A stretch of DNA of 64,000 nucleotides from Lingula anatina. Its lineage: Eukaryota > Animalia > Brachiopoda. Both the position numbers and the translations under genes were made by a program. The notes below the pieces were generated by a model. That model was not told where the DNA came from. It did not search any database and saw only the letters and a list, made by a program, of their open reading frames with translations. The stretch covers positions 17,914,587-17,978,586 of the forward strand of contig CM120648.1 in the NCBI GenBank assembly GCA_051362555.1. The letters are read 5' to 3'. Of this stretch, positions 21,193-63,143 are shown piece by piece. Every line of letters starts with the position of its first letter. Positions within the stretch are counted from its first letter, which is position 1.

Positions 21193-21532
21193 AAGACACC
21201 TACGTCACAGCAAGTGTAAACACATAACTACGTCAGAGCACGTGATAAGACACCTACGTCACAGCAAGTGTAAACACATAACTACGTCAGAGCACGTGTT
21301 AAGACTCACCTACGTCACAGCAAGTGTCAACACATAACTACGTCAGAGCACGTGTTAAGACTCACCTACGTCACAGCAAGTGTAAACTACGTCAGAGAAC
21401 GTGATAAGACTCACCTACGTCACAGCAAGTGTAAACTACGTAAGAGCACGTGTTAAGACTCACCTACGTCACAGCAAGTGTCAACACATAACTACGTCAG
21501 AGCACGTGTTAAGACTCACCTACGTCACAGCA
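21193..21532. repeat. 49-56 bp minisatellite containing the GPCR exon 1 donor site
   Basis: Unit starts at 21193, 21247, 21301, 21357, 21406, 21455 and 21511 (the real junction). Confidence 0.92.
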
Positions 21533-53824: not shown

Positions 53825-54356
53825 TAGTCTCTGAAGACAGGGGCCGCAGTACTTAGTCTCTGAACACAGGGGCCGCAGTACTTAGTCTCTGAACACAGGG
53901 GCCGCAGTACTTAGTATCTGAACACAGGAGCCGCAGTACTAAGTCTCTGAACACAGGGGCCGCAGTACTTAGTCTCTGAACACAGGAGCCGCAGTACTTA
54001 GTCTCTGAACACAGGGGCCGCAGTACTTAGTCTCTGAACACAGGGGCCGCAGTACTTAGTCTCTGAACACAAGGGCTGCAGTACTTAGTCTCTGAACACA
54101 GGAGCCGCAGTACTTAGTCTCTGAACACAGGGGCTGCAGTACTTAGTCTCTGAACACAGGGGCCGCAGTACTTAGTCTCTGAACACAGGGGCCGCAGTAC
54201 TTAGTCTCTGAACACAGGGGCCGCAGTACTTAGTCTCTGAACACAGGAGCCGCAGTACTTAGTCTCTGAACACAGGGGCCGCAGTACTTAGTCTCTGAAC
54301 ACAGGGGCCGCATTACTTAGTCTCTGAACACAGGGGCCGCAGTACTTAGTATCTGA
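53825..54356. repeat. 29-bp minisatellite, about 18 copies
   Basis: Unit tagtctctgaacacaggggccgcagtact. It starts 14 bp after the exon 6 donor. Confidence 0.95.
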
Positions 54357-58731: not shown

Positions 58732-58964
58732 CTACAAGACTAAAAAGCTTTTTAGCATCATTTTATCAGCAAAATTTGGAAACAGTAACCTTAAAGATAT
58801 GAATATTTTGGATGGTATATCTGTGCTAGTGTATACTTCATATTGTCTAGTAACAGTTGCCTTGGTGATCTCCAGGGCAACAAGTTCTGGTTCTACTGGC
58901 TGTATGGTGTTGTGCCAGTCACTACCAAACATGCCTACGAATGATTTCACCGCTCTCTCCGTCC
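58732..58964 (-). CDS. HSD11B1L: 11-beta-HSD1-like SDR, last coding exon
   Basis: Acceptor cttttcag in phase 1. TERAVKSF..PELVALEITKATVTRQYEVY resembles HSD11B1 TETAMK..EECALEIIKG...RQEEVY. Confidence 0.85.
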
Positions 58965-59335
58965 CTGAAAAGATAAGGTTCAATAAATAAAACGCATCTA
59001 GAAAGACCAAAGAAAACATTTGTTTTTGATACTTGTTTATTATTTTGAAAGAGAGAAAAAGTAAAGAATTAAGGTTTGATTTTGGAACCATCGGAAATGC
59101 CATTAAAACGTCAAGTTGAGATTATACAAATATTTTTTTCCACATTCACATGATTTACATAATGTGCAAAAATCAAAGACACTATGTACATGCCAAATAC
59201 AAATAACAATAATAAACACAATATCACACTTGACTATAAACGATGGCATCGCTATACCTGTACTCACGTGTAGCGCCTACCATACACAAGGTAACAGACA
59301 CCCCAGAGTTATAGAGAGCCAGTTCCTGTACTTAC

Positions 59336-59473
59336 GTGTAGCTCCTACCATACACAAGGTAACAGACACCCCAGAGTTATAGAGAGCCAGTTCCTGCCTG
59401 AGGACGCCAAAGAACCCCTGGAGAGCGTACTTAGTGGCGGTGTACACGGCTGTATATGGAGTGGCAGTAACTC
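59336..59473 (-). CDS. HSD11B1L: 11-beta-HSD1-like SDR, catalytic exon
   Basis: GVTATPYTAVYTATKYALQGFFGVLRQEL..VSVTLCMVG contains the SDR YxxxK motif. Acceptor atttcag, donor C|GTAAGT. Confidence 0.9.
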
Positions 59474-60166
59474 CTGAAATAACAGCGTGGTCTGAATTAG
59501 TACAGATACTGTAGTGACATCTTCAGTCATTAGTACTAAGTGGCGGTGTAAACGGCTGTATATGGTGTGGCGGTTACTCCTGAAATAACAGCGTGGTCTG
59601 AATTAGTACAGATACTGTAGTGACATCTTCAGTCATTAGTACTAAGTGGCGGTGTAAACGGCTGTATATGGTGTGGCGGTTACTCCTGAAATAACAGCGT
59701 GGTCTGAATTAGTACAGATACTGTAGTGACATCTTCAGTCATTAGTACTAAGTGGCGGTGTAAACGGCTGTATATGGTGTGGCGGTTACTCCTAAAATAA
59801 CAGCGTGGTCTGAATTAGTACAGATACTGTAGTGACATCTTCAGTCATTAGTACTAAGTGGCGGTGTAAACGGCTGTATATGGTGTGGCGGTTACTCCTG
59901 AAATAACAGCGTGGTCTGAATTAGTACAGATACTGTAGTGACATCTTCAGTCATTAGTACTAAGTGGCGGTGTAAACGGCTGTATATGGTGTGGCGGTTA
60001 CTCCTGAAATAACAGCGTGGTCTGAATTAGTACAGATACTGTAGTGACATCTTCAGTCATTAGTACTAAGTGGCGGTGTAAACGGCTGTATATGGTGTGG
60101 CGGTTACTCCTGAAATAACAGCGTGGTCTGAATTAGTACAGATACTGAAGTGACATCTTCAGTCAT
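59425..60166. repeat. 106-bp minisatellite containing the acceptor and 5' part of the catalytic exon
   Basis: Extra units start at 59531, 59637, 59743, 59849, 59955 and 60061. Confidence 0.95.
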
Positions 60167-60754
60167 CCAAAGGAAATAGTTCAATTCTTATTATGTTCAT
60201 TGCTATGACATACGCCCACTGGACTATAGGTACCATAAAACTAAAACAACTATAGTCGTGCTATTTTCAAATATATTATTTTATAAATATATTTATATAA
60301 TTATAAATATATATTATATCAGTTCATAACGAGATTGACAGAATTGTAGGAAAATAAAACGATGGAGGTTGAAACACGTGACAGTAAACGTTTGTACATG
60401 TGTGACAGGAATGGAAGACCGGGCTCCCATATGATTAGTACAGGTTAGGGTTAGCGGTGTGACAGGAATGGTAGACCTAGGAATGGAAGTCCAGGGTCCC
60501 ATATGGTTAGTACAGGTTAGGGTTAGTCGGAGTTTGGGGGTTAGTTTATTGGACTGTACAAAGTTGTGGAGAATGGACTACAGTTCCTGTCAAACTGACC
60601 ACTTCTGTCTCGTCTTCAATACAACAGCAACACATTCAACATCTCTGAAACAGTATTCTGCTAGTATATTTTACGGAAATGAACTTTTTTTAAATTCACT
60701 TGTTATTTGAAACTTTTTTGTTTGAAGTGATTGACAAGCAGACGACATACCCAC

Positions 60755-60968
60755 CCGCAGTAGAGGAGACCACAGAAATGTGACCACGACTCTTGGTTAA
60801 CAGAGGTAGTGCATGGGACGCCAGATAAACATATGACCGGATGTTAACGTCCATACTGGTGGTCAGTCTCGTGAAGTTGTCCCCTGTCCCCAGCCACGGC
60901 TGGACGTTAGGGAGTATGGCGTGATTCAAAATCAGTATGTCCAGCCCGCCGAGTTTGTTTTCCGTAAA
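60755..60968 (-). CDS. HSD11B1L: 11-beta-HSD1-like SDR, middle exon
   Basis: FTENKLGGLDILILNHA..MDVNIRSYVYLASHALPLLTKSRGHISVVSSTAG. GGLD.LILNH is characteristic of the HSD11B1 family. Confidence 0.92.
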
Positions 60969-61354
60969 CTTGGATTATAAAAAAAAACAATAACGTTTTT
61001 TTAATATTTAGCCAATCGTTTGTTGCAATTCTAGAGATATTTTGCAGTTGTACACACTTTTAATTCTCACTGTTAATTGACACTGTCCTCACTGTCCGTG
61101 CTTTCGTCAAGGTCACAAAATTCTTCACGCCTGTTTCCATGAATATTATATTATATTTATTAGAAAAAGAATAAGACTGGTTTCTAATTCCACTTTATTC
61201 AGACACCGTCCCGTACATTTGACAATACTGTAATTCACAACGTTCACATTGTTCGGGACCCATATAACCCCTCTACCAATGATGACTGCCGAAATTGATA
61301 ATGCCAGGAATTTAGCTGTGTTCCCGATCTAACGTCCTTCTGTGGAAAATCATT

Positions 61355-61578
61355 GATGTGTGTGTACTGTGCACCTTGATAACCCTACTGTAGCTGTCTC
61401 CTCCATGTTTCCCAGGTCAATGTCTGTGTGTGAGTGTGTGTGTGTGTGTGTACCTTGATAACTCTAGCTGTCTCCTCCATGTCTCCCAGGTCAATGTGTG
61501 TGTGTGTATGTGTGTGTGTGTGTCTGTGTGTATGCTGTGTACCTTGATAACTCTAGCTGTCTCCTCTATGTCTCCCAG

Positions 61579-61621
<43 letters not shown>

Positions 61622-62069
61622 GTGTACCTTGATAACCCTAGCTGTCTCCTCCATGTCTCCCAGGTCAATGTGTGTGTGTGTATGTGTGTGTGTGTGTCTG
61701 TGTGTATGCTGTGTACCTTGATAACTCTAGCTGTCTCCTCTATGTCTTCCAGGTAAATGTGTGTGTGTGTGTGTGTGTATGTGTGTGTATACTGTGTACC
61801 TTGATAACTCAAGCTGTCTCATCTATGTCTTCCAGGTAAATGTGTGTGTGTGTGTACTGTGTACCTTGATAACTCTAGCTGTCTCCTCCTTGTCTCCCAG
61901 GTCAATGTGTATGTGTGTATGTGTGTGTGTGTGTGTGTGTGTACTGTGTACCTTGATAACTCAAGCTGTCTCATCTATGTCTTCCAGGTCAATGTGTGTG
62001 TGTTTGTGTGTGTGTGTGTACTGTGTACCTTGATAACTCAAGCTGTCTCATCTATGTCTTCCAGGTCAA

Positions 62070-62100
<31 letters not shown>

Positions 62101-62227
62101 ATACTGTGTACCTTGATAACTCTAGCTGTCTCCTCCATGTCTCCCAGGTCAATGTGTGTGTGTGTGTGTGTGTGTGTACTGTGTACCTTGATAACTCAAG
62201 CTGTCTCATCTATGTCTTCCAGGTCAA

Positions 62228-62258
<31 letters not shown>

Positions 62259-62465
62259 GTGTATACTGTGTACCTTGATAACTCTAGCTGTCTCCTCCAT
62301 GTCTCCCAGGTCAATGTGTGTGTGTGTGTGTGTGTGTACTGTGTACCTTGATAACTCTAGCTGTCTCCTCCTTAATTTGTCTCCCAGGTCAATGTGTGTG
62401 TGTGTGTGTGTGTGTACTGTGTACCTTGATAACTCTAGCTGTCTCCTCCTTAATTTGTCTCCCAG

Positions 62466-62498
<33 letters not shown>

Positions 62499-62546
62499 CT
62501 GTGTACCTTGATAATCCTAGCTGTCTCTTCCATATATGTCTCCCAG

Positions 62547-62594
<48 letters not shown>

Positions 62595-62640
62595 ACTGTG
62601 TACCTTGATAACTCTAGCTGTCTCCTCCATGTCTCTCAGA
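61355..62640. repeat. Compound minisatellite: about 15 copies of an HSD exon end and donor, separated by variable (CA)n
   Basis: gtaccttgataactctagctgtctcctccatgtctcccaggtcaatgtgtg recurs every ~65-100 bp. The real junction is at 62603/62604. Confidence 0.95.
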
Positions 62641-62705
62641 TCAGCTACTGTGTACACATGGTTAGACTCAGGTGCCGGAGATAACTTGTTACACTCTGCG
62701 ATGAC
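62604..62705 (-). CDS. HSD11B1L: 11-beta-HSD1-like SDR, exon
   Basis: Acceptor cttcag, VIAECNKLSPAPESNHVYTVADLRDMEETARVIK, donor AAG|GTACAC. Phase 0-0 links the neighbouring exons. Confidence 0.82.
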
Positions 62706-63012: not shown

Positions 63013-63143
63013 CTTTTTTAGGAGGTTTTCTCTGCGCGCCGTCAAAACAAGGTTTGCTCCCTTCTTGGCGAAATGGTACGCCACCTGTTCTCCAATTCCA
63101 GAGGACGCCCCGGTAATGAGCACTCTCTTGCCTCTCACCATGG
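63013..63143 (-). CDS. HSD11B1L: 11-beta-HSD1-like SDR, Rossmann-fold exon
   Basis: MVRGKRVLITGASSGIGEQVAYHFAKKGANLVLTARRENLLKK with TGxxxGIG. Acceptor tcacag (phase 1), donor AAG|GTCAGT. The upstream membrane-anchor exon was not located. Confidence 0.92.

Follow-up and report, generated by a model that had tools for sequence, protein, structure and literature searches.

A mirage minisatellite at the exon-5 acceptor of a predicted short-chain dehydrogenase gene in the brachiopod Lingula anatina

The stretch of Lingula anatina DNA analysed here (64,000 nt, hereafter the window) contains, on its minus strand, a gene in which one exon is preceded by six near-identical copies of its own intron end and exon start. 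The copies differ from the real exon mainly at silent codon positions, and each of them runs into stop codons. The locus raises two questions: how the mRNA is kept intact when six further acceptors lie in front of the real one, and where the copies obtained their differences.

The minus-strand gene encodes a short-chain dehydrogenase. All three exons tested gave Pfam adh_short matches, the closest database proteins were the Lingula anatina 11-beta-HSD1-like proteins P0001 and P0002, and the best matches bear the 11-beta-HSD1-like name. The predicted product has the Rossmann motif TGxxxGxG together with the catalytic Ser and YxxxK of classical short-chain dehydrogenases, and S120, Y133 and K137 were invariant in all 11 aligned proteins. 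Judged by its predicted protein, the gene is an HSD11B1-like classical short-chain dehydrogenase. Exon numbers presume one exon upstream of 63143. Exon 2 (63013..63143) carries the Rossmann motif as TGASSGIG, and exon 3 (62604..62705) was placed from sequence and from a homologous block in the protein alignment. Exon 4 (60755..60968) ends at 60755 with its donor GT at 60754-60753, in agreement with the first-pass annotation of this DNA, and six RNA reads link this donor to the acceptor. The real exon 5 (59336..59473, 138 nt) contains the catalytic YTATK and has a GTAAGT donor at 59335; it was identified by a peptide identical to P0001 and P0002, by its adh_short match and by real-exon letters in RNA. 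The last coding exon (58732..58964) matches the C-terminus of P0001; all these exons lie on the minus strand. Exon 4 is allelic, with six differing sites within 60792-60879 (four missense and two synonymous), and P0001-like and P0002-like exon-4 letters are both present in public runs. We found no second copy of the repeat unit or of the dehydrogenase gene elsewhere in the 64-kb window, in a search whose exon-5 query was in the wrong frame.

In front of exon 5 lies a tandem array of seven units on the minus strand (59427..60166; period 106, 7.0 copies, 98% matches), six of them decoys and the seventh the real intron end and exon start. Each 106-nt unit comprises the last 57 nt of the intron, the first 47 nt of the exon and 2 nt of filler, and its intron part holds a TACTAAT branch-point-like motif, a weak pyrimidine tract and the AG. 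The AG and the branch-point-like motif are retained in all six decoys. Decoy copy 1 (60061..60166, minus strand) adjoins unique intron, has its acceptor AG at 60111-60110 and carries a private change at 60148. Copies 2-6 (59531..60060, minus strand) have acceptor AGs at 60005-60004, 59899-59898, 59793-59792, 59687-59686 and 59581-59580, and one private change between them, at 59794. The first exon-like bases of the decoys are 60109, 60003, 59897, 59791, 59685 and 59579, and that of the real exon is 59473. Against the real exon, the 47-nt exon-like part, identical in all six decoys, shows five differences: GTT/GTA, ACT/ACC, ACT/ACA and GTG/GTT are synonymous, and AAG/TAG turns the lysine of YxxxK into a stop. 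Compared with the real intron end, the decoy intron parts have one change in copy 1 (60148), one in copy 4 (59794, TTAG for TCAG) and none in the other four. In total there are only two differences among the six copies, against five to the real exon. The array scan and the copy comparison thus reproduced the letters given by the first-pass annotation, including the TAG TAC TAA TGA that ends each decoy and the loss of a lysine that, like the tyrosine, is invariant in 11/11 proteins; the shared upstream segment it had described is 57 nt long rather than 60.

The TAA and TGA that follow the TAG come from the repeat junction, that is, from the 2-nt filler and the first bases of the unit's intron part, and not from mutated exon codons. 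The in-frame junction TAA sits two codons past the TAG, and all decoy readings are truncated, so that use of any decoy would indeed give a poison transcript, as had been claimed. The lysine-to-stop change itself had been presented as significant; we regard it as incidental, because the junction TAA follows two codons on and because 7 of the 101 possible non-synonymous changes are stops. It lies 5 nt from the repeat junction. This junction (60060-60069, minus strand) forms a palindrome of 10 nt with the stop-making base inside it, and the 2-nt filler matches a motif within the intron part of the unit; on the palindrome and the filler match, a template switch is a possible, post hoc origin of the stop. 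The junction also makes a second branch-point-like TACTAAT in each unit.

An array as uniform as this could be real in kind, with its copy number and near-perfect homogeneity partly a product of assembly or polishing. Six copies that differ at just two sites would fit such an explanation, and an amphioxus array of this kind, in BflGb6, was reported as misassembled in a draft genome (PMC3087553). The private changes at 60148 and 59794 and the lack of any N in the 64,000 nt of the window fit resolved long-read sequence instead, and DNA of another sample backs a repeat-type start after unique intron: one X2 contig runs from unique intron through the acceptor to 60098 with 1 mismatch in 183, so that 60105, 60102 or both must carry the repeat-type letter. 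We consider an assembly product very unlikely. Two origins fit this contig: it may be copy 1 as carried by a different animal, or a working allele that has the repeat-type codons. A depth calculation hints at a further X2 contig covering 60098-60154, too indirectly to be given weight.

We then examined which acceptor is used. Reads of 4 of 21 listed runs with the same species label were mapped to 60062-61330, which covers exon 4 and copy 1, and real-exon reads were recognised as other letters at the copy-1 positions 60081 and 60096, the two of the five differing sites that were listed. In run X12, the six reads mentioned above run from the exon-4 donor across to the acceptor, and real-exon letters stood at 60081 and 60096 in 8/8 reads, at low depth. 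Decoy-type reads were 0/8 in X12, with an upper 95% bound of 31% decoy use in RNA prepared with no decay block; the X12 animals may be without the array, and decay of stop-containing transcripts would hide decoy use. RNA depth was nil in bins 60148-60362 in all three RNA runs, two of which (X15 and X18) gave no reads on the exon. None of the eight X12 reads came from a working allele of repeat type, though two exon-4 types occurred among those reads. Within the same intron, 60400-60570 is a dispersed repeat element, where DNA depth is very high and to which many RNA reads map from other loci. These results show, at low depth, that the last, real acceptor is used, which is in line with the splicing route that had been proposed for this gene; the skipping of identical acceptors is known behaviour, seen in the amphioxus arrays and in human CBS 844ins68.

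The same reads bear on whether the decoys act as a regulated poison switch that sets the enzyme level through unproductive splicing. In its favour, all six decoys lead to an early stop. Against it stand the absence of decoy-type reads (0/8) and of any reads in the intron part of the repeat, the origin of the stops as junction by-products, and the presence of like arrays at unrelated boundaries in the window. We consider a poison switch very unlikely. RNA structure masking the decoys received no support either, since a three-copy fold had z=-1.49 and 6 of 100 shuffles were equally stable. Geometry may account for the choice. From the real acceptor the exon is 138 nt long, against 244-774 nt from the decoys, and the flanking introns are both longer than 250 nt. 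In a human survey, pairing across the exon is supported when introns are long, and 3' sites under exon definition have a significantly reduced upstream preference with no clear reversal (PMC9225289). By analogy with these human data, the real acceptor would win by having the nearest downstream donor and by being followed by the full exon. Any rare decoy product would carry an early stop and would probably be degraded.

Repeats of this type have been described in amphioxus as 'mirage' minisatellites, in BflGb6, BflGb9, Adh3, troponin C and PGBD5 (PMC3087553, PMC3902484). For BflGb6, PMC3087553 describes one haplotype of 6 units and another of 3, with inner units evolving in concert, the boundaries excluded and splicing regular. 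The exon-5 array of Lingula is likewise a head-to-tail repeat with its unit across the exon-intron boundary, keeps its splice signals in 6/6 copies, goes with regular mRNA splicing (8/8 X12 reads, at low depth and from animals that may be without the array), and has inner units that evolve in concert (two differences among six) with the boundary unit left out (five differences). It is a further example of this known repeat type, in a brachiopod. Both the amphioxus mirages and the Lingula array repeat an intron 3' end with an exon 5' part in tandem, around a homogenised centre with the boundary left out, and donor-side and acceptor-side cases occur within one genome in both. The Lingula array differs in its host, a brachiopod rather than a cephalochordate, and in its 106-nt unit; its copies are far more uniform and all retain the AG, whereas the BflGb6 units are 81-100% alike and some have lost the AG.

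Human genes offer partial analogues. In CBS 844ins68, splicing takes the distal acceptor, and a damaging coding change within the upstream copy leaves the transcript with the intron (PMC2630376, PMC1802585). It is thus a single-copy analogue of the Lingula array, with a duplicated intron/exon junction and choice of the distal acceptor; it has one extra 68-nt copy against six in Lingula, and CBS has G runs between its two sites that favour the distal one. Donor-spanning minisatellites are known from F7 IVS7, CBS IVS13, LMNB2, PDGF and 6-16 (PMC1557585). In these, the splice sites are identical and normally just the exon-adjacent one is used, which matches the donor arrays of Lingula exon 3 and of a GPCR gene described below; they are donor-side, unlike the exon-5 acceptor array, and some of the genes also use one or two pseudo-sites. 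In the Rogers model of intron creation by segmental duplication (PMC3265369), a redundant duplicate is likewise removed by the spliceosome with the protein unchanged; there a new intron arises from exon duplication, whereas in Lingula an existing intron is lengthened.

The exon-5 acceptor array is not alone in the window, which holds four boundary-spanning repeats in two genes: at the exon-3 donor (15 extra copies), the exon-5 acceptor (six), the exon-5 donor (one) and a GPCR donor (six). The exon-3 donor array (61360..62603, minus strand) has 15 extra copies of the exon-3 end, the donor and a CA microsatellite; it falls into two sub-families, one with an Arg-to-stop change. The exon-3 block and the first part of exon 4 are missing from the database model of P0002, as is the N-terminal half from that of P0001; these gaps are perhaps mis-predictions around the exon-3 donor array. 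At the other end of exon 5, an extra 68-nt copy of the exon end and donor (59257..59324, minus strand) differs from the real end at a synonymous site (59343) and at an intron site (59333). If used, this second donor, made by a 68-nt duplication (59257-59392), would shift the frame. A rhodopsin-family GPCR gene (21197-21532, minus strand) has a donor-side mirage with six extra copies of the last 13 exon nt and the donor, GTGAGT being intact in 4/6. On the plus strand at 53825-54356, a 29-nt array of about 18 units begins about 14 nt past the apparent donor of a Cys-rich exon and does not span the boundary. This exon bears an apparent resemblance to a chitin-binding domain.

We next assessed whether the codon pattern exceeds chance. 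The 47 nt allow 141 single changes, of which 40 are synonymous (0.284), 94 missense and 7 stops. If all changes had fallen on the copy, the probability of at least four synonymous changes in five would be 0.025. The first-pass annotation had reasoned that neutral decay should not respect codon position. This ignores the branch of the working exon, which the comparison includes and which keeps mainly silent changes, and for this reason P rises to 0.12 when the exon is also allowed to drift by synonymous changes only, or to 0.07-0.10 when some missense changes are admitted. In the other two arrays of the gene, two of three fixed copy-versus-exon differences are synonymous (the exon-3 array contributes two, one synonymous and one missense), and pooling all three arrays gives 6/8 (P=0.005 with one branch, 0.058 with two). 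Among the 11 gap-free exon-3 copies of the 15, the four gapped ones being left out, 1/7 variants is synonymous and 4/11 copies have a stop, which matches the prediction for random decay. The synonymous bias is modest and forces no special mechanism.

What is left is a matter of level and place. Of the 13.3 synonymous sites in the exon part of the unit, 4 differ (0.30), whereas five X2 contigs depart from the window at 14 of 680 positions (2.1%, mostly intronic); the published heterozygosity of Lingula is 1.6% (PMC4595640). An ordinary present-day allele alone as the source has P=0.0001-0.003. Allele difference at capture with drift on both branches gives a joint P of 0.02-0.08 at 2-5% divergence, and the same model gives 0.10-0.33 for the exon-5 unit at 10-20% allele divergence. 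Allelic differences in this gene are not predominantly silent: four of the six in exon 4 are missense. The differences, 1/57 in the intron part against 5/47 in the exon part, yield a Fisher P of 0.09, or 0.02-0.03 against the share expected without homogenisation. This contrast is mildly unexpected; it and the high synonymous divergence are the remaining oddities, on five to six sites that were selected by scanning for unusual patterns.

The published BflGb6 units show a comparable pattern. We counted haplotype 1 units D1-D5 by eye from supplement 4 of PMC3087553, leaving out D6 and the haplotype-2 units and setting the reading frame by the phase-2 intron that the paper states. In D3-D5, 6/6 sites that differ from the exon are synonymous third positions, one of them at the edge of homology, and three of the six differing letters are those of the haplotype-2 exon. 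D2 has eight differences (six synonymous, one stop and one missense), and in D1 5/8 are synonymous. The 'mostly silent plus stop' pattern thus recurs, by this count, in a published mirage, where it is partly allelic. The main text of PMC3087553 has no occurrence of 'synonymous' or 'silent', and a full-text literature search, with the supplements of other papers beyond its reach, found no paper on synonymous bias in mirages. As for the source of the Lingula unit, the earlier proposal had named a divergent allele or paralogue, or turnover of the exon. The allele or exon turnover is the likeliest, with the differences arising mostly in coding sequence, and the by-eye finding that three of six amphioxus sites are allelic agrees with it; a paralogue is excluded for the six other, more distant members of the family found in Lingula, since in a comparison of proteins all of them differ in the GVTATPYTAVYTATKY peptide and cannot be the template.

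A single copying event could also produce the contrast between the two parts of the unit. A template switch at the acceptor would have brought in the whole 47-nt exon part at once, from a strongly diverged sequence that encodes the same peptide, such as a near-identical paralogue or a haplotype of a related Lingula lineage. The intron part would have come from the same chromosome, and amplification of the unit would have followed. One step would account for the near-identical intron part (1/57) and the diverged, synonymous exon part together, and the likelihood of exactly 4/5 synonymous is 0.33-0.41 under a coding source against 0.11 under two-branch drift; on five sites, this is an advantage of about threefold only. 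P0001 and P0002, in which the GVTATPYTAVYTATKY peptide is unchanged, lie on different contigs, but the two may be alleles, and no template with repeat-type codons was seen among the sequences compared. The X2 contig with its repeat-type letter at 60105 or 60102 could be such a working allele, or copy 1, and the six other Lingula members found differ in the peptide. On balance we regard a one-step transfer as unlikely.

The sharp step itself, from no differences in the last intron part to 5/47 at the exon start, might instead reflect a splicing code, in which selection holds the real exon unlike the decoys, through exon enhancers or copy silencers, against the homogenisation that has evened out the intron part. 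Such selection would fit a synonymous divergence tenfold above that between alleles, and in CBS 844ins68 the distal acceptor is promoted by sequence between two identical acceptors (PMC1802585). However, donor proximity and the full exon already set the real acceptor apart; the exon starts of BflGb6 units equal the real exon over the first 26 nt, and splicing is reported as regular (PMC3087553); and the exon-3 and GPCR donor copies equal the real junction, with no such differences nearby. The splicing code is an unlikely explanation. A wider version, in which mirages store past working alleles, are renewed from the live exon by misaligned exchange, and owe their silent differences to selection for a splicing code that lets the real acceptor prevail over six identical competitors, is likewise quite unlikely; if it were true, synonymous bias would be a general and so far unremarked property of mirages.

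Taken together, we favour, with a probability of roughly 0.7, a six-copy mirage of intron end and exon start that is spliced out as intron in the RNA reads seen, with differences that probably come from working coding sequence. The unit would preserve the state of a functional allele older than, or different from, the present one, and from then on the live exon would have accepted only silent changes. In this sequence of events, one duplication across the acceptor would have put a truncated exon start into the intron, and unequal exchange would have amplified and homogenised the units, leaving out the edge unit, which is the real exon. Misaligned exchange with a working allele may have refreshed the 5' part of the decoys with coding letters and only rarely their last bases; the single non-synonymous change falls in those last bases, which would be the rarely refreshed zone. 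With the last acceptor used, as the RNA indicates at low depth, the array would need no function and would be tolerated, since with this polarity the mRNA stays intact.

These findings extend mirages to a brachiopod, with three in one gene. Such arrays may mislead gene prediction, as perhaps in the P0002 model without its exon-3 block. The exon-5 array lends itself to studying how splicing settles on the last of seven identical acceptors, and if the silent differences do steer acceptor choice, it would be a clean case of synonymous-site selection opposing concerted evolution.
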